Source: Candidatus Parachristensenella avicola (GTDB taxonomy: Bacteria > Bacillota > Clostridia > Christensenellales > UMGS416). Taken from it: a stretch of DNA of 64,000 bases. The translations under genes were made by a program, and so were the position numbers. This document shows positions 1,311 to 12,554 of the stretch, in pieces; position 1 is the first letter of the stretch, and the number at the start of each line of letters is the position of its first letter. The notes beneath the pieces were generated by a model that saw nothing but the letters and a program-made list of their open reading frames with translations, was not told the DNA's origin and did no database searches. The stretch is from contig CAJFUN010000028.1 in the NCBI GenBank assembly GCA_904420205.1, positions 4,568-68,567 on the forward strand, in the 5' to 3' direction.

Positions 1311-2699
1311 ATGGAATATCGTTATGCAAAGCGCTACCCTGTGCCCGGGCTGCTGAACTGCCGGGATCTGGGCGGCTACCCGCTACCGGGCGGGCAAACC
1401 CGCTGGGGCCTATTTTGGCGCAGCGCTTGCCCCTACGGGCTGTCAGAAGAGGCTGTCGCCGCGCTGGAGCGGATGGGGCTCGCCCTTGTGATCGATCTGC
1501 GCAGCGGTTTTGAGCGCCGCCAGCAGCCAAGCGCCCTGGCCGGGCGCACAGCTTTTGCCCTGCTGGAACTGCCTCTGCTGGATCAAATTGGCGCTTCGAT
1601 GACGCACACCAGCGATATGGGTGAATTCTATGCCGCCCTGCTGCATCATGGGCAGGCATGTTTCCGAACGCTTTTCACCCGCATCGCTGAAGTTGAAGGG
1701 CCGGTGCTCTTTCACTGCACTGCCGGCAAAGACCGCACCGGCGTCGTCGCAGCGCTGCTGCTGGCGCTGGCCGGTGTGGAGCGGCCGGACATCATTGCCG
1801 ACTATGAGGTCAGCCATACGCTCATCGCCCCGCTGATCGAATCGCTTCATGGCGCGGTGCCGGGGCTGGATATGAACCGGCTTGAATCCCGACCGGCGTA
1901 CATGGCCCGCTTCCTGGATGAGCTGGAAGGATTGGGCGGCGCATACCGCTACCTCACGGACCGGTGCGGCCTGCCGGAGGCAACGGTTCAACGGCTGAAG
2001 CGGCGGCTTACCGCCCCGCCGCCCGACAGCTGGTACGGCTACCGGCGCATCCCCCTTCCAGGCGTGGAAAACTTTCGGGATCTGGGAGGGTATCCCATGG
2101 CCGGCGGTGGAATCACCCATTGGGGCCGCCTATACCGCAGCGCTTTCCCACGCCTGGGGATGGAGGAACGCCAACGGCAGGCCCTCCTGCAGGCCGGCGT
2201 CACCACCGTGCTGGATCTACGCAGCGCCGTCGAGGACGCGGCCCATCCCCATCCGCTTGCAGGGGACAGACGCTTTCGGATCGTGCGCAACTCCCCTGAC
2301 GATTTCCTCTCAATCGATCCCGATCAGCCCTTCCCCCAAATTTATCAGGACTACTTGCGCCAGGGCGCCGACCATTACCGCGCTGTAATGGAGGCCGTCG
2401 ACCGGGCCGACGGCGCTGTGCTGATTCACTGCTTTTCCGGTAAAGACCGCACCGGCATGGTATCGGCACTGCTCATGGATCTTGCCGGCGTAGCTGCTGC
2501 GGATATTATAGCCGATTATCAAGTCAGCCTCACCTATTTGACCGGAGCGGAAGCCCATCGTATTCCCTCTCATGCGGAAAACATGGCGGCTTTTCTTGCG
2601 CTGCTCGGCCAGTACGGCGGCGCGGCCCGCTTCCTTAGCCAGCGCTGCGGCCTTCCTGAAAGCCTGCTGGAGCGCATTCGGCTTCGCTTATGCCGATAG
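1311..2699 (+). CDS. two-domain (internally duplicated) protein-tyrosine phosphatase-like protein
   Basis: Start moved from the track ORF (1134) to ATG 1311, which has AGGAGG (1298-1303) 7 nt upstream. Two ~230-aa halves each carry N-x-RDLGGYP and a CX5R P-loop (HCTAGKDRTG; HCFSGKDRTG). Confidence 0.8.
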   Translation: MEYRYAKRYPVPGLLNCRDLGGYPLPGGQTRWGLFWRSACPYGLSEEAVAALERMGLALVIDLRSGFERRQQPSALAGRTAFALLELPLLDQIGASMTHTSDMGEFYAALLHHGQACFRTLFTRIAEVEGPVLFHCTAGKDRTGVVAALLLALAGVERPDIIADYEVSHTLIAPLIESLHGAVPGLDMNRLESRPAYMARFLDELEGLGGAYRYLTDRCGLPEATVQRLKRRLTAPPPDSWYGYRRIPLPGVENFRDLGGYPMAGGGITHWGRLYRSAFPRLGMEERQRQALLQAGVTTVLDLRSAVEDAAHPHPLAGDRRFRIVRNSPDDFLSIDPDQPFPQIYQDYLRQGADHYRAVMEAVDRADGAVLIHCFSGKDRTGMVSALLMDLAGVAAADIIADYQVSLTYLTGAEAHRIPSHAENMAAFLALLGQYGGAARFLSQRCGLPESLLERIRLRLCR

Positions 2700-3300: not shown

Positions 3301-4134
3301 ATGAAAAAGTTTCCCGTCGCATATCAGGTCTATTCCGCCCGCGATGAGGCGCAGGCCGACCTTAAGGGCGTGCTCTCCCAGCTGAAGGCCATGGGCTATG
3401 CTGGCGTTGAGTTTGCCGGATTTTACGGCCACTCGGCCCAGGAAGTCAAGGCTATGCTGGACGAAACCGGCTTGACCGCCATTTCGAGCCACGTTCCCTT
3501 CCAGTCCATGGTTGAGGACATGTTCGGCGTGATCTCCTACCATAAAACCATCGGTTGCCGGTACATCGCCATCCCCTATCTGGACGAAGCGACCCGCCCC
3601 GGAAGCGACGGTTTCGCGGATGTAATTCAGAAAATTTATACCTTCGGCCAGCTATGCCGCACGGCGGGGATCCAGCTGCTGTACCATAACCACGACTTCG
3701 AGTTTGTCAAGCTCAGCGGGCAATACGGGCTGGATTTCCTTTATTCCGCCGTACCTTCCTGCCTTCTGGCTACGGAGCTGGATACCTGCTGGGTCAAGTA
3801 TGCCGGGGAAGATCCGGCCCGATACATCGAAAAGTACGCAGGCCGCTGCCCGGTGGTGCATCTGAAGGACTATGTGGGCGTCAAAAGCGACCGCCAGCCC
3901 TATGCATTGATTCAGGCCGACGGCCAGGACGACGCCACTGCCCAGAACGACGCGCCCTTTGAATTCCGTCCCGTGGGCCATGGCTGCCAGGACTTTCCCT
4001 CCATTCTCCAGGCTGCCGAAGCCTCCGGCGCCCAGTGGGTGGTGGTGGAGCAGGATCTTTCCCTGACCCGTCCGCCGCTGGAGGCCGCTAAGATGAGCAT
4101 CGATTATCTTAAGTCCATCGGCGCTGCGCTGTAA
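3301..4134 (+). CDS. sugar phosphate isomerase/epimerase (xylose-isomerase-like TIM barrel) family protein
   Basis: 277-aa ORF whose length and pattern (GYAGVEFAG.., ELDTCW.., VVEQD) are typical of this family. Confidence 0.65.
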   Translation: MKKFPVAYQVYSARDEAQADLKGVLSQLKAMGYAGVEFAGFYGHSAQEVKAMLDETGLTAISSHVPFQSMVEDMFGVISYHKTIGCRYIAIPYLDEATRPGSDGFADVIQKIYTFGQLCRTAGIQLLYHNHDFEFVKLSGQYGLDFLYSAVPSCLLATELDTCWVKYAGEDPARYIEKYAGRCPVVHLKDYVGVKSDRQPYALIQADGQDDATAQNDAPFEFRPVGHGCQDFPSILQAAEASGAQWVVVEQDLSLTRPPLEAAKMSIDYLKSIGAAL

Positions 4135-4150: not shown

Positions 4151-4186
4151 AATAAGGACGCCCTTCCATGGGAGGGCGTCCTTATT
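4151..4186. terminator. bidirectional intrinsic terminator between convergent genes
   Basis: Perfect 14-bp stem aataaggacgccct (4151-4164) / agggcgtccttatt (4173-4186) with an 8-nt loop, sitting between the stop at 4134 (+) and the stop at 4318 (-). Confidence 0.75.
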
Positions 4187-4317
4187 GTTTACCTGCTATC
4201 CTGTTGATTGGGCTTTCCGCTATCCTCCACAGCCCCTTCAGAGGGTCTCTACAAATCGCTGCAAATTTCGCAGCATTTGTACTCCCCATCTTTTATGCCA
4301 GTATATCACTGCACATT

Positions 4318-5481
4318 TTAGTCATCCTGGTCATCGTCGTCCTGGTCATCGTCCCGGTCGTCGTCGTCCCGATCGTCGTCATCCTGGTCGTCGTCATCCT
4401 GGTCGTCGTCGTCCCGGTCGTCGTCGTCCCGATCGTCGTCGTCCCGATCGTCGTCGTCCCGATCGTCGTCGTCCCGATCGTCGTCGTCCCGGTCGTCGTC
4501 CCGGTCATCGTCGGCCAGGTCGTCGGCCAGGTCGTCGTCGTCACGGTCGTCGTCCTGGCCGTCGGCCCGGTCATCGTCGGCCCGATCGTCGTCGTCCTGG
4601 TCGTCGTCCTGGTCGTCGTCCCGGTCGTCGCCGGCCCGATCGTCGTCGTCCCGGTCATCGTCACGGTCGTCGTCGTCACGGTCGTCGTCCTGACCGTCGT
4701 CCCGGTCGTCGTCACGGTCGTCGTCCTGGCCGTCGGCCCGGTCATCGTCATCCTGGTCGTCATCCTGACCGTGGAGGGCATTCCAGTCATCGTTACCTTC
4801 AAAATCTGCTTCCAGGACCTTACCTGTACGGGCGTCTACTTCATATTCATACTCGATACCATTAGCAGAAAATTCGAATTCATAGACGCCGTCATCCAGT
4901 TCATATTCGTGATCCCTGAAAGAAGCGGATACCACGCCGAGTTGAGAAAGTACTAATTCTTTTGCTTTTTCCAGATTGATATAGCCATTATCATCCAAAT
5001 CTGTTTTCTGAATGGTCATAGCGGCCGACCCAATGCCGTGGGCTTTTACTGCTTCCCGGGCTTCATCTGCGATGCTTTCCAGGAAATCATCATCTGGATA
5101 CGCAGAGCCTTCCTCCAGTTTGAGTATGATGTTTTTTGCATGTCCATCCACTGTTTCTGCAAAAAAACCGGCTTCATAGATTTTTTGCACAAGTTCATTG
5201 ACAACGCTTTTGCATTCTTTGCCTTTGTATTCCGCAACTTCTGCTGCAACTGTTTTACCGTCGTCGTTCATACCTTCGATTTCAAGCACAAATCCATTCT
5301 CGTCGTATTCAATCTTTATTTCAGGATTTATGCTTAGCAGCACCGTTCCTGCTACTTTACTTTCAGCTACAGGCGATGACATCTCCATGGTTTGCGACGC
5401 ACCGCATCCCGTAAGAAGCGTCAGTGCTAAGGCGGTCGTGACAGTCAGTGCAAGCGTCTTCCTCAAGTTCATCTTTTTCAT
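4318..5481 (-). CDS. lipoprotein with an RsgI-like Asn-Pro domain, a PepSY domain and a ~150-aa poly-Asp C-terminal tail
   Basis: ATG 5481 (MKKMNLRK..) has an AAAGGAGAA RBS. Lipobox LLTGC. The segment LLSINPEIKIEYDENGFVLEIEGMNDDGK aligns with the ectodomain of the upstream anti-sigma factor. PepSY-like EYELDDGVYEFEFSANGIEYEYEVDARTGKVL. The tail consists of DDDDR/DDDDQ units. Confidence 0.8.
   Translation of the reverse strand: MKKMNLRKTLALTVTTALALTLLTGCGASQTMEMSSPVAESKVAGTVLLSINPEIKIEYDENGFVLEIEGMNDDGKTVAAEVAEYKGKECKSVVNELVQKIYEAGFFAETVDGHAKNIILKLEEGSAYPDDDFLESIADEAREAVKAHGIGSAAMTIQKTDLDDNGYINLEKAKELVLSQLGVVSASFRDHEYELDDGVYEFEFSANGIEYEYEVDARTGKVLEADFEGNDDWNALHGQDDDQDDDDRADGQDDDRDDDRDDGQDDDRDDDDRDDDRDDDDRAGDDRDDDQDDDQDDDDRADDDRADGQDDDRDDDDLADDLADDDRDDDRDDDDRDDDDRDDDDRDDDDRDDDDRDDDDQDDDDQDDDDRDDDDRDDDQDDDDQDD
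4321..4773 (-). repeat. coding tandem repeat with 15-bp period (GAC GAC GAC GAT CGG = DDDDR) and degenerate variants
   Basis: Four perfect units cccgatcgtcgtcgt at 4428-4487 on the + strand, flanked by many near-copies. Encodes about 151 aa of D/R/Q/A/G only. Confidence 0.9.
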
Positions 5482-5603
5482 GGCGTCTTCTCCTTTTGGC
5501 AAATTGGTCTGGCTTTTTTGTCTTATACATATAGATTACGGGGCATCGCCAGCGGAATCGGGGTCGCGAATAAGATTTTCATTGAATTTCTTAATTGCGT
5601 TAT

Positions 5604-6689
5604 CTACTTATCATCCAAATCGTCCCCGGCGTCGTCATCGTCGTCCCCGGCATCGTCGTCATCGCCGTCCCCGGCGTCGTCGTCATCGTCGTCCCCGGCA
5701 TCGTCGTCGTCTCCGGCATCGTCGTCATCGCCGTCCCCGGCGTCGTCATCGTCGTCTCCGGCATCGTCATTGTCGTCTCCGGCATCGTCATTGTCGTCCC
5801 CGGCATCCCCGGCATCCCCAGCATCGTCGTCATCGCCGTCCCCGGCGTCGTCAGCGTCGTCCCCGGCATCGTCGTCATCGCCGTCCCCGGCGTCGTCAGC
5901 GTCGTCCCCGGCATCGTCGTCCCCGGCGTCGTCATCGTCGTCCCCGGCATCGCCGTCCTCGGCGTCGTCATCGTCGTCCCAGTTGTCCTCAGTTCCATGG
6001 TCCCTCTGCCCCGGGTTTTCATTGCCCTCAATATCACTTCGCCCAGGGGTTTGCGCCGGTATAAAATCATCGGGGTTAATCACAATTGTCCATGAAATAT
6101 CAGATGGCTCCTCAGAACTTTCACTCGGTATGACCACAACATTGACACGGTTATCAAAATGTTCTTTTAATTCCGACACTAAAGTTTTCTCAATATCCGC
6201 TTTCCACTTTTCATGCTTAGAGTCCACGGCCAGCATAATTTGGCCGCCCTCACTAAGAAATCCCATGTCCATAGCCCGGTCGCTTAGGTCATCGGATACT
6301 ATTTCAACGGTTTTACCATAGAAGCGATAGTCCTCAATAAGCATTTTACCGTCCTCATTCATGCCTTCTAAGCCGACAATCCGGTTGAAATGGTTCACGC
6401 ACATTTGAACATCGGGGTTAATCCGTATCCGCACCGTTCCTGCTGGTGACCGCCAAAATCCCCAGCATCCAAGGATCATCACGCATAAGCATGCCGCTAT
6501 CGCCGTCCATTGTGTAAAATGCCTTTTATTATCGCGCCGCCTAGCAAGCGCATCCTGAAGAATCACCCGGTCCACTACTTCCCCAACATCATAGCCCAGA
6601 TTCGGGATTTTCAAAAAGCGTCCCTCTTTATCCAAAACGACAGCATAGCTGAAACCGCATTCCACCACAAGATATTCCATCCGCCTCAC
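5604..6689 (-). CDS. rsgI: anti-sigma-I factor RsgI-like, with a ~125-aa poly-Asp (DDDDAG) C-terminal tail
   Basis: The N-terminus (..YAVVLDKEGRFLKIPNLGYDVGEVV) resembles the RsgI N-domain. It has a single TM (WTAIAACLCVMILGCWGFW) followed by VRIRINP (Asn91-Pro92 = 6414-6419). The GTG start overlaps the sigI stop (GTGA); an alternative ATG lies at 6680. Confidence 0.7.
   Translation of the reverse strand: MRRMEYLVVECGFSYAVVLDKEGRFLKIPNLGYDVGEVVDRVILQDALARRRDNKRHFTQWTAIAACLCVMILGCWGFWRSPAGTVRIRINPDVQMCVNHFNRIVGLEGMNEDGKMLIEDYRFYGKTVEIVSDDLSDRAMDMGFLSEGGQIMLAVDSKHEKWKADIEKTLVSELKEHFDNRVNVVVIPSESSEEPSDISWTIVINPDDFIPAQTPGRSDIEGNENPGQRDHGTEDNWDDDDDAEDGDAGDDDDDAGDDDAGDDADDAGDGDDDDAGDDADDAGDGDDDDAGDAGDAGDDNDDAGDDNDDAGDDDDDAGDGDDDDAGDDDDAGDDDDDDAGDGDDDDAGDDDDDAGDDLDDK
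5607..5981 (-). repeat. coding low-complexity repeat (D/A/G); includes a perfect 45-bp tandem duplication at 5821-5910
   Basis: 5821-5865 and 5866-5910 are identical (gcatcgtcgtcatcgccgtccccggcgtcgtcagcgtcgtccccg). Confidence 0.9.
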
Positions 6690-7414
6690 GCCCCTTTCCC
6701 CGATGTGATCTGGCTAAGGTGCCCTCGAATTATTTCATACCCATTGGTATATGCAAGCAGGAGCGCCACAAGATATTTTCGATGCCGCTCCAATGTTTTC
6801 TTCTCCACGCCAGCGCCTTCTGCCAGCGCCGATAGCGGTAATTTCCCGCTCGCAACAAATTGGTCTAAAAGAATCCGCTCCTTGCGGGCATAAGCCAATA
6901 CCTGATGGCACGCTTTCATTGTTCGCGCCTGTTTGGGGCAATTATCCGCGACATCCGTCAGCCTAAGGCCATATTGCGAAAGCTGTCGGGAAAATTCCAA
7001 AATCTCCTCTTTTGCAGCATTCCGCGCATGGCGGTGGGCAATTTCATCGTGTCCCGCATCGATTTTTTCCAGAAGCGTCCGGCTTTTTCCCTCATCACCC
7101 ATGCGCTGATCCAAAGAGATCATGCCAGTATGCCGCTTTTCCTTGCGGCGATAATCAATAAGCCTATTGCGGATAACCACCGCAGCGAACTTTAAGAACG
7201 AGCCCTTCTTCTGCACATAGGCCATCGCCGCTTCATGGAACGCAAACATCGCGACATTCAATTCATCATCCTGCCCCGCAATTGGCATCCTTTTTAAGAA
7301 CCTCGCCGTTTCTGATTGAATGTATGGGAAGTATTCCCGCACAAGCGCATCTGCTGCCTGCGCATCCATTTTAGACCCATATACCCGATTCACAATTTCG
7401 TGCTCCGTTTTCAT
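6686..7414 (-). CDS. sigI: RNA polymerase sigma-I factor
   Basis: 242 aa. The region-2 segment NVAMFAFHEAAMAYVQKKGSFLKFAAVVIRNRLIDYRRKE closely parallels B. subtilis SigI as I recall it. The stop overlaps the rsgI-like start. RBS AGGAG upstream of ATG 7414. Confidence 0.8.
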   Translation of the reverse strand: MKTEHEIVNRVYGSKMDAQAADALVREYFPYIQSETARFLKRMPIAGQDDELNVAMFAFHEAAMAYVQKKGSFLKFAAVVIRNRLIDYRRKEKRHTGMISLDQRMGDEGKSRTLLEKIDAGHDEIAHRHARNAAKEEILEFSRQLSQYGLRLTDVADNCPKQARTMKACHQVLAYARKERILLDQFVASGKLPLSALAEGAGVEKKTLERHRKYLVALLLAYTNGYEIIRGHLSQITSGKGA

Positions 7415-7579
7415 TAACGCACTCCTGTCTACATATAGGATACGATGGCCCCATGCTTTTTACAGGGTTTTGACATCCATAAATTCAAATAAACCCATTA
7501 TGGACTGTATACAGGATTGGTAAATTTATTGTCATTGCAGGGTAAAATTCATGTAAACCTATTGCAGCAGATACACCGC

Positions 7580-7608
7580 AAAAAAAACGGGCCAAAGCCC
7601 GTTTTTTT
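7580..7608 (-). terminator. intrinsic terminator (bidirectional shape) after the membrane-protein gene
   Basis: A8-cgggc-caaa-gcccg-T7 at 7580-7608, 17 nt downstream of the stop at 7625. Confidence 0.8.
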
Positions 7609-7624
7609 AATAAATAATCATTGA

Positions 7625-8320
7625 CTAAGCCTGGCTTCGAGGCCAGCGCAGCGGGAAGTAGCCGATGACCGCAATAAGCAGCGCGCCCAAGGCATCCACG
7701 ATTAGGTCTTTCATGGTATCCAGCAGGGCTGCCCGGCCTACCAAGGGCGTACCGTCCTCCACGGCAAAGTGCTGCATGTTCATCGAAAGCAGGCCGTCCA
7801 TCAGGTATTCGTAAATCTCCCATACCGCTCCGCAGGCCAGCGCAAAGCAAAAGGCGAAAAAGGCCACAAAGCCCGGGCTTAAATTCATCTTGACGTTGGG
7901 CGCGTCATTCAGCAGGTTCACAAGCACAAATCCCAGCGCGCCCAACATGGCCCCGCTAAAGCCGTGCAAAATGGTGTCCCAATGGGGCACTGCGTAGTAA
8001 AAATTCCGCACCTCACCCAAATACACTGCGCAATAAAGAAAAGCGAAGTAGAGCACATACATATAGTTGGGAATCTCCAGGCGAAAGCGCCGTTCCAGCA
8101 CAGAGGGCAGAAACATCACGATGATGGCCATCAGGCACTGTACCAGCATCAACGTATAGTCGCTTTTGATCTTGGCGTGCGGATCCCCGGCAGGCGCTAC
8201 GGCAGGCGAGCGGATCATGCAGGTCACTGCATAGCCAATGGAAAACAGCAGCGAAAAAAAGAGGATAACGCCGATGATCTTCTTCCATGGCACAGCGGGC
8301 CGCTTTCCGTTTCGTTTCAT
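7625..8320 (-). CDS. polytopic membrane protein, function unknown
   Basis: 231-aa ORF with about 6 hydrophobic segments. I do not recognise the family with confidence. Confidence 0.7.
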   Translation of the reverse strand: MKRNGKRPAVPWKKIIGVILFFSLLFSIGYAVTCMIRSPAVAPAGDPHAKIKSDYTLMLVQCLMAIIVMFLPSVLERRFRLEIPNYMYVLYFAFLYCAVYLGEVRNFYYAVPHWDTILHGFSGAMLGALGFVLVNLLNDAPNVKMNLSPGFVAFFAFCFALACGAVWEIYEYLMDGLLSMNMQHFAVEDGTPLVGRAALLDTMKDLIVDALGALLIAVIGYFPLRWPRSQA

Positions 8321-8528: not shown

Positions 8529-8987
8529 ATGCCCGCAAACGCCAAACGCTGCTCCCGCAAACCCACTTGTGTGATGCTGATTAACGAAATCTCTAAGCTT
8601 TTCCATGACCGCATGCGCCAGAAAAGCGAACGCTCCAATTTCAAACCGACCTATCAATCCATCCTGCGAGTCGTGGCTCACGAACCCGGCCTTAGCCAGC
8701 TGGAAATTGCCAGCCGCGTACACCTGGCCCCGCCCACCGTCAGCCTGGCCCTTCAAAAGATGGAAGCGGAAGGGCTCATCCGCCGCGAACCCGATGCCCG
8801 CGATCTCCGCCAGGTTCTTGTCTTTCTCACCGATACGGGCCGCGAAATGGACGACGTTATGCGCCATACGGCGGAAAGCACAGATAAGCTCATCACCAAG
8901 GGGCTGACCCGGGAAGAGCTGGATACGATATACCCGATCCTCCTAAAGATGCGCGATAACATCATAGAGGGCGGGCCAATTAAATGA
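8529..8987 (+). CDS. MarR family transcriptional regulator
   Basis: 152 aa with a winged-HTH pattern (LSQLEIASRVHLAPPTVSLALQKMEAEGLIRREPDARDLRQVLVFLT). The stop overlaps the next start (ATGA). Confidence 0.85.
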   Translation: MPANAKRCSRKPTCVMLINEISKLFHDRMRQKSERSNFKPTYQSILRVVAHEPGLSQLEIASRVHLAPPTVSLALQKMEAEGLIRREPDARDLRQVLVFLTDTGREMDDVMRHTAESTDKLITKGLTREELDTIYPILLKMRDNIIEGGPIK

Positions 8988-10714
8988 AACGAATTTTAAG
9001 CTACCTTAAGCCCTATTGGCTTCTCGCGCTCCTGACGCCCGTTACGATGGTGGTAGAAGTGCTGGTGGACCTCATGCAGCCTACGCTGATGAGCCGCATC
9101 GTCGACGCCGGTGTTCTGGCAGGCGATATGCAGGTGATTATCTCGACAGGGCTGACCATGCTCGGTCTGGTGGTCGTGGGCGGGTTGGGCGGCGTTGGCT
9201 CCGCCGCCTTTGGCAGCATGGCCTCCCAGCGTTTCGGCAACGATCTGCGCCAAGCAGTATTCAGCCGCGTGATGGCGCTCTCTTTCCAGCAGACGGATAC
9301 CTTTACCACCGGCAGCCTGGTGACCCGGCTGACCAACGACTGCCAAATGGTGCAGGAGATGGTCAACCAGGTGCTGCGTATGTTCGTTCGCTCCTTTATG
9401 CTCTTTGCCGGCGGCATTATCATGGCCCTGTCGTTGAATGTGAGCTTCGGGCTGGTGCTGCTGGTAGGCCTGCCGCTTCAGCTCATTATTCTTTTTATCT
9501 TCCTGAAGAAGGCCAGCCCTCTGTTTGGCAAGGTTCAGTCCCGCTTGGACCGTGTCAACTCCGTAGTTCAGGAAAACGTTACCGGGGCCCGCGTGGTCAA
9601 GGCCTATGTGCGGGAAGATTACGAGATTGACCGCTTCACACAGGCCAATGAAGCCCTGGTGGCCACCAATCTTAAAGTGCAAAAGCTGATGAGCCTAATG
9701 ATGCCCATCATGATGATAATCATGAACTTTTCCGTAGTCGCCATTATCATCATCGGCGGCTTTCAGGTAGAGGCCCAGGCCATGCAGGTAGGCCAGGTCA
9801 TGGCCGCCGTCACCTATGTATCCCAAATTCTGATGAGCATGATGATGGTGGCCATGATGTTCCAAATGGTATCCCGGGCCATGGCCTCCGCTCAGCGCAT
9901 CGTGGAGGTGCTGGAGACCGATCCGGCCGTGGTATCCGGCGGCCGGGCCCTCCCTGGGGGCGGCCGCGGCAGCGTCACCTTTGAACACGTCAGCTTCCAC
10001 TATCCCGCTTCCTCCCACCGTCCAGTGCTGGTGGACATTGATCTGGCCATTCGCCCCGGGGAAAACTTCGCCATATTGGGATCCACCGGCTCTGGCAAGA
10101 CTTCCTTGGTGAACCTTATCCCCCGTTTCTACGACGCAAGCGAAGGCACAATCCGGATCGACGGCGAAGACGTACGCGACCTAACGCTTTCCAGCCTGCG
10201 CGCCCGCGTCGGAATGGTGCTGCAAAAAAGCGAGCTTTTCTCCGGTACCATCGCCGATAACATCCGCTGGGGCAACAGCGAAGCTACTGACGACGAAGTA
10301 AGGCAAGCCGCGCGTATTGCGCAAGCGCACGATTTTATCATGGGCTTTTCCGAAGGATACGATACCGTCATCGGGGAAAAGGGTTCCTCCCTCTCCGGCG
10401 GGCAGAAGCAGCGGCTGGCCATTGCCCGGGCTATACTTAAGCGCCCGGAAATCCTTATTTTTGACGACTCCACCTCGGCCTTGGATCTTGGCACAGAGGC
10501 GCGGCTGCAGCAGGCGCTGCGCCAAGCGCTCAAAGGCACGACCGTCATCACCATCGCTCAGCGTGTAGCCTCTGTCTCCAACGCTGACCGGATTGCCGTG
10601 CTGGACCATGGCCGCTTGGCCGCCTGCGGTTCTCACGAGGAACTGATGGCCTCCAGCGACATTTACCAGGATATCTACAGCTCCCAGATGCGAAAGGAGG
10701 CCGTCAATGAGTAA
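8984..10714 (+). CDS. ABC exporter, fused permease/ATPase subunit (type I, heterodimer partner 1)
   Basis: 576 aa. Six-TM N-half, Walker A GSTGSGKTS, signature LSGGQKQR, Walker B ILIFDDSTS. Confidence 0.9.
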   Translation: MKRILSYLKPYWLLALLTPVTMVVEVLVDLMQPTLMSRIVDAGVLAGDMQVIISTGLTMLGLVVVGGLGGVGSAAFGSMASQRFGNDLRQAVFSRVMALSFQQTDTFTTGSLVTRLTNDCQMVQEMVNQVLRMFVRSFMLFAGGIIMALSLNVSFGLVLLVGLPLQLIILFIFLKKASPLFGKVQSRLDRVNSVVQENVTGARVVKAYVREDYEIDRFTQANEALVATNLKVQKLMSLMMPIMMIIMNFSVVAIIIIGGFQVEAQAMQVGQVMAAVTYVSQILMSMMMVAMMFQMVSRAMASAQRIVEVLETDPAVVSGGRALPGGGRGSVTFEHVSFHYPASSHRPVLVDIDLAIRPGENFAILGSTGSGKTSLVNLIPRFYDASEGTIRIDGEDVRDLTLSSLRARVGMVLQKSELFSGTIADNIRWGNSEATDDEVRQAARIAQAHDFIMGFSEGYDTVIGEKGSSLSGGQKQRLAIARAILKRPEILIFDDSTSALDLGTEARLQQALRQALKGTTVITIAQRVASVSNADRIAVLDHGRLAACGSHEELMASSDIYQDIYSSQMRKEAVNE

Positions 10715-12554
10715 TGCAAGGCCTGCCCCACCCAGGGGCCCCGGCGGACCAGGCGGCCATGGGGGGCCTCGCGGAATGGCTATGGTCCGCGAAAAGCCGA
10801 AGGACGTTAAGGGTACGGTTAAGCGCTTGGTGCGCTACATCGGCTCCAGCCGCTATCTCTTCTTCAGCCTGCTGGCCATCATGGTTTTCGTCACGTTGCT
10901 CTCTTTGGCAGCGCCGGCGCTGCAGGGCTATGCTATTGACGCAATTACGTTAAAAGAAGGTCAGCTGCACGTGGATTTCCCCCGGATGGCGTCCATCCTC
11001 ACGCTGCTTTCAGCCGTTTATATCGCCTCCTCTTTGCTAACCTATCTACAGGGGCTCTTTTCGGCTAAGCTCTCTCAGCAGACGGTGCGCGTCATGCGCG
11101 GCGATCTTTTTGAAAAGATCGTCCACTTGCCCATCCGTTATCTGGATACCCATCCGCACGGCGACATCATGAGCCGCATGACAAATGACGTGGAGAACAT
11201 CTCCAATACGATCTCCCAATCCATCGGTTCGCTTTTCTCCGGCGTGCTTACGCTGATCGGGTCTGTGGCGATCATGCTGTACTACAGCCCCATGCTCACG
11301 CTGATCAGCTTTGTCACCGTAATACTCAGCGCCTTGGCCACCCTGGTAATGAGCAAATTTATGCGCAAGTATTTCGCCGCCCAGCAGGCGCTGCTGGGGC
11401 AGCTCAACGGCCAAGTCGAGGAAATGGTCACCGGCTACAAAACCGTGGTCGCCTTCAGCCGAGAGGATACGGCTAAACGCGAATTCAATGAAACCAGCAA
11501 TCGCCTGCAGGATACCGCCATTCGCGCCCAGATCTTCGGCGGCGCCATGGGCCCGCTGATGAACGTCATCGGCAACTTTGGATTTTTGCTTATCGCAGGT
11601 TTTGGTGGCTGGTTCGCCTTGACCGGCGCTATCACCATCGGCACCATTCAGGCCTTCATCCTCTATGCCCGCCAGTTCACCCGGCCCATCAATGAAATCG
11701 CCAACCTATATGGACAGATTCAGACGGCGCTGGCTGGAGCGGAGCGCGTATTCTCCATTCTGGATCATGCCAGTGAGCGTCAGGAAGCTGCGGGCACTTT
11801 AGACGTAGCGCAAGTGAAGGGGGATCTGGATTTCCGCCATATTTACTTTGGCTACGTGCCCGGCGAACCGGTGCTGAAAGATTTTAATCTAACCGTCAAA
11901 AGCGGTCAGAAAGTGGCTATCGTCGGGGCAACGGGCTCCGGCAAAACCACCTTGGTCAACTTGCTAACCCGGCTATATGATATCGACAGCGGGGAAATTC
12001 TGCTGGACGGGCAAAACATCCAGGACATTCCCCTAAGCGAACTGCGCCGTAGCATTGCGATCGTACTGCAAGATACGGTGCTCTTCTCCGACACCATATC
12101 TGCCAACATCCGTTACGGCAGGCTGGATGCCCGCCAAGATGAGGTAGAGGCCGCTGCCGCTACCGCTAATGCCGACCACTTTATCGCCCAGTTGCCCCGA
12201 GAGTATCAAACGCAGCTGAGCGAATCCGGTGGCAACCTGTCCCAGGGGCAGCGGCAGCTCCTTTCCATCGCCCGGGCAGTGCTGGCCGACCCGAAAATTC
12301 TCATCCTGGACGAGGCTACTTCCAGCGTGGATACCCGCACCGAGATGCATATCCAGCAGGCCATGGTTGCGCTGATGGCGGGCCGTACCAGTCTCATCAT
12401 CGCCCACCGGCTATCCACCATCCGGGACGCGGATAATATCGTTGTTATTGAAAACGGCCGCGTAGCTGAAATGGGCAACCACGACCAGCTGCTCTCGGCC
12501 AAAGGCTGCTATTGGCGGCTCTATCAGAACCAATTCGCCGGCATCGCCACCTGA
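10707..12554 (+). CDS. ABC exporter, fused permease/ATPase subunit (heterodimer partner 2)
   Basis: 615 aa. Walker A GATGSGKTT, signature LSQGQRQL, Walker B ILILDEATS. Overlaps the upstream gene by 8 nt. Confidence 0.9.
   Translation: MSNARPAPPRGPGGPGGHGGPRGMAMVREKPKDVKGTVKRLVRYIGSSRYLFFSLLAIMVFVTLLSLAAPALQGYAIDAITLKEGQLHVDFPRMASILTLLSAVYIASSLLTYLQGLFSAKLSQQTVRVMRGDLFEKIVHLPIRYLDTHPHGDIMSRMTNDVENISNTISQSIGSLFSGVLTLIGSVAIMLYYSPMLTLISFVTVILSALATLVMSKFMRKYFAAQQALLGQLNGQVEEMVTGYKTVVAFSREDTAKREFNETSNRLQDTAIRAQIFGGAMGPLMNVIGNFGFLLIAGFGGWFALTGAITIGTIQAFILYARQFTRPINEIANLYGQIQTALAGAERVFSILDHASERQEAAGTLDVAQVKGDLDFRHIYFGYVPGEPVLKDFNLTVKSGQKVAIVGATGSGKTTLVNLLTRLYDIDSGEILLDGQNIQDIPLSELRRSIAIVLQDTVLFSDTISANIRYGRLDARQDEVEAAAATANADHFIAQLPREYQTQLSESGGNLSQGQRQLLSIARAVLADPKILILDEATSSVDTRTEMHIQQAMVALMAGRTSLIIAHRLSTIRDADNIVVIENGRVAEMGNHDQLLSAKGCYWRLYQNQFAGIAT

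Follow-up and report, generated by a model that had tools for sequence, protein, structure and literature searches.

The window analysed here is a 64-kb stretch of DNA (64,000 nucleotides; all coordinates refer to it) from contig CAJFUN010000028.1 of Candidatus Parachristensenella avicola, assembly GCA_904420205.1. On its minus strand lie three co-oriented genes, bracketed by two hairpin terminators, which encode a sigma factor (sigI), its anti-sigma factor (rsgI) and a lipoprotein. Together they appear to form a three-gene stress-signalling cassette of gut anaerobes, made up of a sensor and of a surface lipoprotein that the sensor appears to switch on. A first-pass annotation of the sequence had described the three minus-strand open reading frames (ORFs), and all were found where it had placed them. 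RsgI and the lipoprotein both end in an aspartate-rich tail, and they are the sole Asp-rich ORFs within the window. The features are as follows.

7437..7468, minus strand: SigI-type promoter of sigI-rsgI, ACCCTGTAAAAAGCATGGGGCCATCGTATCCT, with the motif CCCC-N19/20-CG[TC]A
6686..7414, minus strand: sigI, alternative sigma factor of the sigma-I type, 242 aa (NCBIfam SigI models, Pfam Sigma70_r2)
5604..6680, minus strand: rsgI, anti-sigma-I factor, 358 aa from ATG 6680 (RsgI_M E 2e-20; AlphaFold2 model)
6561..6680, minus strand: predicted cytoplasmic sigma-I-binding N-domain of RsgI, residues 1-40 (AlphaFold2 and Foldseek)
6453..6509, minus strand: single transmembrane (TM) helix of RsgI, residues 58-76, WTAIAACLCVMILGCWGFW (Kyte-Doolittle maximum 1.80)
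6111..6446, minus strand: SEAL (RsgI_M) juxtamembrane domain of RsgI (Pfam PF23750, E 2e-20)
6414..6419, minus strand: Asn88-Pro89 of RsgI (Asn91-Pro92 if the start is GTG), predicted autocleavage site in the beta1-beta2 hairpin, codons AAC CCC
5607..5981, minus strand: poly-Asp tail of RsgI, 125 aa with 77 Asp in DDDDAG-type units, net charge -77 (from composition)
5533..5564, minus strand: second SigI-type promoter, for the lipoprotein gene, ACCCCGATTCCGCTGGCGATGCCCCGTAATCT, with the motif ACCCC-N19-CGTA
4318..5481, minus strand: gene of the SEAL-PepSY-polyAsp lipoprotein, 387 aa (RsgI_M E 1.5e-15, PepSY E 2.5e-9)
5404..5481, minus strand: signal peptide and lipobox LLTG-C, Cys26 at 5404-5406 (sequence inspection)
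5002..5349, minus strand: SEAL domain of the lipoprotein, Asn52-Pro53 at 5323-5328 (Pfam RsgI_M E 1.5e-15)
4801..4980, minus strand: PepSY domain (Pfam PF03413 E 2.5e-9; family profile against PDB 9vy3 E 3e-8)
4321..4785, minus strand: poly-Asp tail of the lipoprotein, 155 aa with 106 Asp and 20 Arg in DDDDR/DDDDQ units, net charge -86 (from composition)
7581..7608, minus strand: terminator hairpin and U-run of the upstream gene (7625-8320); fold -16.3 kcal/mol, z -3.75 against shuffles
4151..4186, minus strand: terminator-like hairpin 3' of the lipoprotein gene; a 66-nt segment folds at -26.9 kcal/mol, z -5.5

Proteins of the cassette

In profile searches the window sigma factor matches NF006178 from position 2 to position 235 of the 236 in the model (E 6e-47) and TIGR02895 with an E of 5e-46, and it exceeds the Sigma70_r2 cut-off (26.2 bits against 24). 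The SigI identity proposed in the first-pass annotation is upheld by these significant hidden Markov model (HMM) matches. As the match is full-length and yet the score stays under the equivalog cut-offs (157 bits against 185 for TIGR02895), we assign the protein, on its profile scores, to a divergent subfamily of SigI.

The rsgI gene lies directly downstream of sigI, as had been annotated, but homology makes the proposed overlap between the sigI stop and the rsgI start the less likely reading. The overlap requires the alternative start GTG 6689, which would give a protein of 361 aa and is less likely than ATG 6680 (MEYLVVEC), the start favoured by the comparison with homologues, which leaves a 5-nt gap after the sigI stop. 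The codon position given for the Asn-Pro site (6419-6414) was exact, while its numbering changes to Asn88-Pro89 under the ATG start. The AlphaFold2 model of RsgI, with a predicted local distance difference test score (pLDDT) of 88.6, has three strands within residues 3-26 of the N-domain and a helix spanning residues 52-77. Foldseek matches the N-domain to 6ivs, the N-domain of Clostridium thermocellum RsgI1 (probability 1.0, 32% identity), and the RsgI_N profile is matched by 21 of the 23 family members searched (best E 8e-7). Outside the membrane, the modelled SEAL domain resembles Bacillus subtilis RsgI 8t9n (Foldseek TM-score 0.84, root-mean-square deviation 1.9 Å), and the RsgI family profile retrieves from the PDB 8t9n (E 2e-10) and 8hep (E 3e-9), with further matches to 8her, 8u9o and 8heq. 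The arrangement of N-domain, single TM helix and Asn-Pro domain that had been read from the letters is thus borne out by HMM, AlphaFold2 and Foldseek.

RsgI proteins are known to cleave themselves between Asn and Pro in the hairpin formed by the first two strands, after which the halves remain associated (PMC10556640, PMC10328401). The Asn-Pro pair is kept in 52 of 53 RsgI homologues, and in the AlphaFold2 model of the window RsgI it is located between beta1 and beta2. In profile alignments Pro89 of the window protein falls on the residue with which the cleaved chains of C. thermocellum RsgI1, RsgI2, RsgI6 and RsgI9 (including 8hep_B and 8her_B) begin.

The lipoprotein starts at ATG 5481, which is preceded by the ribosome-binding site AAAGGAG, and not at TTG 5502, the start of the raw ORF. 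Its signal peptide and lipobox read MKKMNLRKTLALTVTTALALTLLTG-C, with Cys26 invariant in 17/17 aligned homologues, and it is on these two features that we predict the window protein to be a lipoprotein. The NPE motif at the putative cleavage site is kept in 119 of 120 homologues, and the AlphaFold2 model (pLDDT 78) places strands beta1 (45-50) and beta2 (54-59) on either side of the Asn-Pro pair; the best fold match of this model in the PDB is again 8t9n. The PepSY domain named in the first-pass annotation is supported by the Pfam match listed above. By analogy with the published RsgI proteins, autocleavage of both window proteins is probable.

The two ectodomains had been aligned with each other in the first-pass annotation, and the relationship is significant: BLASTP gives an E of 7e-9 at 32% identity across 68 aa, and a comparison of the two family profiles with hhalign gives a probability of 98.6 and an E of 8e-16 over 134 columns. 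Judged by these alignments, the ectodomains of RsgI and the lipoprotein are homologous and the two families paralogous. The beta1 strands themselves are alike, GTVRIRIN-P in RsgI and GTVLLSIN-P in the lipoprotein. The lipoprotein retains the extracellular features of the sensor, its cleavage site and tail, without the signalling half. Some relatives of the lipoprotein end without an Asp tail and have two or three PepSY domains instead, and others have an Asp-rich linker between PepSY domains (P0008, P0015, P0017, P0043, P0077, P0097, P0068 and L060 carry these variant architectures); the Asp tail and extra PepSY domains may be alternative solutions.

Promoters, conservation and spread

A scan of one genome per species returned 209 relatives of the lipoprotein, of which 80 loci were examined; the best lipoprotein match among the species representatives is 67% identical. 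The order sigI, rsgI, lipoprotein gene on one strand is found in 70 of the 80 loci, and the other ten either end at a contig edge (five) or carry the lipoprotein gene alone (five). When all ORFs of the 80 loci were clustered, no further conserved neighbour gene emerged.

The promoter of sigI, read from 7468 to 7437, is ACCCTGTAAAAA-N12-CGTA. Across the loci the motif takes the form GACCCCG, then an A- or T-tract, then CG(T/C)A..CT, with the spacing from CCCC to CG fixed at 19 nt, and it agrees with the published SigI promoter consensus (PMC4711584, PMC10575876), given in the former as ACCCCC--AA N15 CGAA----T and CCCYYAAA N13-14 CGWA. Of 70 related loci, 68 have it ahead of sigI, where shuffles would give 1.6, and of 79 loci, 75 have it ahead of the lipoprotein gene, where shuffles would give 1.3. 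The strict motif has 115 matches in 879 kb of related loci, and every one is on the operon strand, before sigI or before the lipoprotein gene. In metagenome contigs the commonest form of the motif occurs at least 120 times; among the 120 matches listed, 80 precede a member of the lipoprotein family, 13 precede sigI and 6 lie at a contig end, and the other 21 precede something else or nothing, as chance would give. Within the 64-kb window no intergenic copy was found beyond the two cassette promoters, and a third match, 10384-10354, was rejected, lying inside an ABC transporter gene on the wrong strand. The lipoprotein therefore looks like the dedicated, perhaps the only, local output of this SigI, and we hold the promoter wiring of the cassette, as read from these comparisons, to be very likely.

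Several loci carry two to four tandem promoter copies before the lipoprotein gene (L048:5432-5937; L059:5853-5954; L072:2552-2653; L080, upstream of 6001), an arrangement that would boost lipoprotein output. Two of the lone lipoprotein genes, in L003 and L041, retain a SigI-type promoter, and its retention without an adjacent sigI-rsgI pair implies control in trans. In two of those 21 metagenome matches, on contigs L145 and L152, the motif precedes genes of other kinds, in one case a dockerin and Cthe_2159 carbohydrate-binding protein and in the other a beta-helix lipoprotein; these may be SigI targets of cellulolytic species, unrelated to the cassette.

A generic scan for sigma-70 and terminator consensus sequences found nothing beyond shuffle level, and the terminators are supported by folding instead. 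On its predicted fold the hairpin at 7581-7608 would be an insulator of the cassette against transcription from upstream, and that at 4151-4186 is probably common to the lipoprotein gene and the convergent gene 3301-4134. Since folding found no terminator-like structure in the spacer that separates rsgI from the lipoprotein gene, transcripts begun at the sigI promoter are likely to continue into the lipoprotein gene as well.

Of the loci examined, 38 belong to Coriobacteriia (Olsenella, Thermophilibacter, Collinsella), outside the Firmicutes to which published accounts largely confine SigI and SEAL; examples among L010-L079 are Olsenella uli (L019), Thermophilibacter provencensis (L025) and Collinsella tanakaei (L054). 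The whole cassette, including both promoters, is present in this class of Actinomycetota. Since the Coriobacteriia proteins are about 60% identical to their nearest clostridial copies, a value inside the range among Clostridia themselves, the comparison suggests transfer of the whole cassette between phyla. A tblastn search of the lipoprotein against plasmid and phage collections returned no match and so no evidence for a known mobile carrier.

The first-pass annotation had also remarked that the non-repeat parts of the operon are low in GC, and this is real: GC is 0.443 in the folded part of the lipoprotein gene, 0.474 in that of rsgI and 0.503 in sigI, against 0.571 for the whole window. As a general trait of the cassette the dip is rejected, because elsewhere cassette GC tracks that of the host (median differences -0.005 and -0.017). 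The nearest relatives of the window cassette come from genomes of 0.42-0.47 GC. With cassette GC well below its surroundings here while matching the host in other genomes, the dip seems peculiar to this window and the cassette was probably acquired recently in this lineage.

Two neighbouring features of the window stand outside the cassette. A MarR regulator and ABC exporter gene pair (8529-12554, plus strand) is divergent from it, and the ORF at 1311-2699 (plus strand), with two tandem tyrosine-phosphatase (Y_phosphatase3) domains, is unrelated to it. ABC exporters lie within 6 kb of the cassette in 40 of the 80 loci, in varying positions and orientations and mostly within single lineages, and in L041 an ABC pair occupies the usual place of sigI-rsgI. 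We regard this neighbourhood as a weak lead outside the system, which could be due to chance or to a functional link.

Poly-aspartate tails

The twin acidic tails described in the first-pass annotation are both present, in frame with the folded domains. Their composition, 62-68% Asp with no hydrophobic core, is in keeping with a disordered sensor region like that of B. subtilis RsgI, yet far more extreme than that of published examples. At the DNA level they consist of tandem repeats, imperfect but in frame, whose periods, 15/27 and 21/36, are all multiples of three.

The survey of related genomes shows that such tails are usual in this cassette. An Asp-rich tract of at least 20 aa is found in 63 of 70 RsgI proteins, in 68 of 70 lipoproteins and in both proteins of 62 of the 70 loci with a linked lipoprotein gene. 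In a collection of 5.8 billion proteins nearly all homologues end in Asp-rich tails of 40-170 residues. The RsgI subfamily comprises 586 representatives at 50% clustering with E ≤ 1e-30, and an Asp-rich tract is present in 101 of the best 150 of these cluster representatives, while in a further 12 the tract mixes Asp and Glu. Repeat units vary by lineage (for example DDDDR, DDWDDGQ, DDRYDD and DDADD), while in close relatives the Asp fraction is 0.5-0.7 and that of Glu at most 0.05. Because the repeat units differ between lineages, it is the composition of the tail, Asp over Glu, and not its sequence that appears to be conserved. Among near-identical strains the RsgI tail ranges from 78 to 127 aa and the lipoprotein tail from 83 to 157 aa, with 0-3 changes in the folded part.

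Both tails are also present in homologous cassettes of HiFi long-read assemblies (L017, L036, L062), which, together with repeat periods that are all multiples of three, excludes an assembly artefact as a general explanation; the first-pass annotation had named long-read data as a check on exactly this point. On the comparative evidence we consider the tails real and selected.

The GAC/GAT repeats are an annotation hazard, as the frames that do not encode the tails also stay open over long distances, giving spurious ORFs with a high content of Val, Arg, Thr, Ser or Pro. In the window these are 4168-4956(+), 4185-4865(+), 4293-4802(-), 5198-6064(+), 5518-6321(+), 5595-6095(+) and 5600-6070(-). 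The tails are frameshifted in the database entries P0039, P0075, P0117, P0192, P0196 and P0203.

Mechanism, alternatives and known systems

In the account that we favour, with a probability of roughly 0.6, the cassette is a self-contained SigI/RsgI switch working through regulated intramembrane proteolysis, and its output is a lipid-anchored paralogue of the sensor's ectodomain. Family membership and work on B. subtilis and C. thermocellum suggest that the RsgI N-domain would hold SigI at the membrane and that the SEAL domain would cleave itself constitutively between Asn88 and Pro89, its halves held together by a shared beta-sheet. The 125-residue tail of RsgI would be a disordered polyelectrolyte, about 45 nm long when extended and able to thread the cell wall, and pulling on it could strip the ectodomain off. 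By the same family membership and published work, a site-2 protease of the RasP/RseP kind would then cut the remaining stub, cytoplasmic proteases would act too, and SigI would be freed. Comparative sequence evidence suggests that SigI would use two near-identical promoters, that of sigI-rsgI, giving autoregulation, and that of the lipoprotein gene. The lipoprotein would be exported, lipidated at Cys26 and self-cleaved at Asn52-Pro53, leaving its ectodomain held to a 27-residue lipopeptide by beta-sheet alone. Since the ectodomain would be held non-covalently after self-cleavage, it could be released, possibly shed by the same force that acts on RsgI. The lipoprotein may then form a polyanionic layer on the surface, or a decoy, that is made on induction, can be released and takes up the stimulus, and so exerts negative feedback.

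Our confidence is not uniform across this account. The identity of the parts is close to certain, the action of the RsgI tail as a force sensor is an evenly balanced question, and the role given to the lipoprotein is tentative and rather doubtful. The functions suggested in the first-pass annotation, namely cation binding, an entropic probe of the wall and a decoy, are likewise conjectural. A disordered region is required for RsgI signalling in B. subtilis (PMC9732909), and anionic teichoic acids have been proposed to keep such regions out of the pores of the wall (PMC12132405).

Several observations weigh against the switch as we have drawn it. The window RsgI scores 19-20 bits against RsgI_N, where the cut-off is 25, and the lipoprotein promoter of the window is without the A/T tract of most relatives (GATTCC in place of GGTTTT). 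In the five loci with a lone lipoprotein gene (L002, L003, L004, L041, L075) there is no sigI-rsgI pair within about 6 kb upstream. The lengths of the RsgI and lipoprotein tails are uncorrelated across loci (rho 0.20, p 0.10) and so give no support for a shared 'ruler' function. Furthermore, scrambled and foreign disordered regions all function in B. subtilis (PMC9732909), and because any disordered tail works there, disorder alone would not explain the strict Asp bias seen here. This bias points to a charge-dependent stimulus that our model does not pin down; the tail might be repelled by anionic polymers of the wall or bridged to them by cations (cf. PMC12132405), or it might respond to divalent cations or to polycations such as antimicrobial peptides.

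It is conceivable, if improbable, that the cassette is a receptor with an inducible decoy receptor, which would read the electrostatic state of the envelope through two tails that answer one charge-dependent stimulus. That stimulus might lie in divalent cations, in polycations of host or microbial origin or in how dense the anionic wall polymers are, and the lipid-tethered copy of the ectodomain made under SigI would titrate it and be shed, turning the pathway off. Alternatively the copy might turn the pathway off by re-capping the cleaved RsgI stub through beta-strand complementation, which is conceivable because the beta1 strands of the two proteins are similar. If this were true, the composition of a disordered tail, and not just its disorder, would set the specificity of the signal.

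Another explanation, possible though unlikely in our judgement, is that of a divalent-cation sensor and buffer, in which the tails bind Ca2+ or Mg2+ and a loss or excess of cations alters their extension or their bridging to wall polymers and thereby triggers RsgI. That the induced lipoprotein would act as a surface cation reservoir is, to us, just as unlikely. The strong bias to Asp over Glu in the tails of the window and its close relatives speaks for such a function, as does a tail composition that is conserved while the sequence is not. Poly-Asp and Asp-rich proteins such as calsequestrin and the biomineralisation proteins are classic Ca2+ binders, which we count in its favour; however, the proteins have no recognisable Ca2+-binding motifs or folded binding domains, and the 80 loci have no conserved neighbouring gene for cation transport or homeostasis.

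We think it quite unlikely that the stimulus is a cationic antimicrobial peptide or another polycation, whose binding to the RsgI tail would trigger SigI and which the sheddable polyanionic lipoprotein would then soak up as a decoy. All hosts are gut or rumen anaerobes, the output lipoprotein has the stronger anionic tail and is predicted to be releasable, the tandem promoters of several loci would raise its output, and ABC exporters lie nearby in half of the loci (40/80) and in the window. This argument is nevertheless wholly circumstantial: ABC exporters are very common and their arrangement is lineage-dependent, and a SEAL-based peptide sensor has no known precedent.

Very unlikely, in our view, is a role of the lipoprotein as a regulator that acts through PepSY on a wall hydrolase or an extracellular protease; SigI would then steer envelope remodelling by way of PepSY, and the tails would be mere flexible spacers. 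The PepSY domain is conserved, two or three such domains replace the tail in some relatives, and the PDB matches include the M4 peptidase propeptide (9vy3) and YpeB (5boi); a suspected inhibitor role of PepSY is noted by Brogan et al. (PMC10556640). The neighbourhood of the 80 loci is, however, without a conserved protease or hydrolase gene, and a spacer role leaves unexplained both the terminal position of the tail and the same tail on RsgI, which has no PepSY domain. Finally, it is scarcely credible, and already largely refuted, that GAC/GAT repeats produced the tails as artefacts of assembly or annotation, or that slippage left them as neutral sequence without function. The long spurious ORFs, the length differences among near-identical strains and the frameshifted database entries would fit this view. 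Against it, both tails continue the reading frame of the folded domains, 62 of 70 loci from two phyla have them on RsgI and the lipoprotein alike, with differing repeat units, HiFi and circular assemblies contain them, and all their repeat periods are multiples of three.

The SigI/RsgI switch that we favour shares much with the cell-wall-defect pathway of B. subtilis (PMC9732909, PMC10556640), namely the sigI-rsgI pair, the N-terminal anti-sigma domain with one TM helix, a SEAL domain with the Asn-Pro autocleavage motif, a low-complexity C-terminal tail without a folded sensor domain, and an autoregulated promoter of the ACCCC...CGWA type, found here by sequence comparison. It differs in its hosts, which are gut Clostridia and Coriobacteriia, and in its tail, which is 60-70% Asp where that of B. 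subtilis is mixed charged and polar. The SigI regulon of B. subtilis consists of wall genes (lytE, mreBH, bcrC), whereas the conserved target here is a SEAL-PepSY lipoprotein with its own SigI-type promoter. The polysaccharide sensors of C. thermocellum, SigI1-9/RsgI1-9 (PMC10328401), likewise have the Asn-Pro site, a model of RseP-type proteolysis and a CGWA -10 element. Sensing of that type was rejected for the cassette, because profile searches found no carbohydrate-binding module in either protein, where C. thermocellum has it C-terminally; moreover the window has a single cassette and not a set of paralogues, and its output is not a cellulosome component.

Fusions of SEAL to PepSY are frequent; according to Brogan et al. 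2023 (section 14 of PMC10556640), the anti-sigma domain or the TM segment can be missing from them, and they have no disordered region. The window lipoprotein resembles these fusions in that SEAL is followed directly by PepSY, with neither an anti-sigma domain nor a TM segment, and it differs in its tail, 68 of the 70 lipoproteins here carrying an Asp-rich one. As SEAL-PepSY fusions without an anti-sigma domain were mentioned there earlier, the class of lipoprotein is not wholly new. The main text of that paper makes no mention, for the fusions, of sigI-rsgI linkage, a lipid anchor or a dedicated SigI promoter.

Other surface proteins offer partial parallels. Proteins with MAIN/GAIN domains have been proposed to work on a like principle, in which an autocleaved domain, held non-covalently, anchors an ectodomain in the envelope until force releases it, and no transmembrane signalling takes part (Brogan and Rudner, bioRxiv 10.64898/2026.05.12.724683). 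Their fold, in contrast, is GAIN-like and not SEAL, their cargo consists of enzymes, adhesins and toxins and not of a polyanionic tail, and no paralogous sensor is known to induce them. SEA-domain mucins such as MUC1, which has been described as a releasable decoy, have an autocleaved juxtamembrane domain bearing a very long, polyanionic, disordered and sheddable ectodomain; here the fold topology is convergent and not homologous, the charge of mucins comes from glycans and not from Asp, and the proteins are eukaryotic.

In full-text literature searches, which covered the main text of PMC10556640, we found no paper that joins PepSY or SEAL proteins with Asp-rich tails and no description of the sigI-rsgI-lipoprotein cassette or of its second promoter. 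The twin acidic tails, for which the first-pass annotation had no precedent to name, thus have none in these searches either. SigI/RsgI, SEAL autoproteolysis, sensing by a disordered tail and SEAL-PepSY fusions are known, and the individual parts are ordinary; what looks new is how they are combined, that the tails are polyanionic, that the switch has a paralogue of its own sensor as dedicated output, and that the cassette has spread beyond Firmicutes.

How extracellular disordered tails sense the state of the Gram-positive wall is an open question, and the finding that any disordered sequence seems to function in B. subtilis hampers work on the mechanism. The cassette is a naturally occurring variant whose tails keep closely to poly-Asp, both on the sensor and on its only conserved local target, and it offers a clean natural experiment on what such tails detect. 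For sigma/anti-sigma systems, feedback through a lipid-anchored copy of the sensor's own ectodomain, induced by the sensor, would be a design without a reported example. Gut Clostridia commonly carry the module, and its cultivable carriers in Olsenella and Collinsella put both its ecology and experiments within reach.

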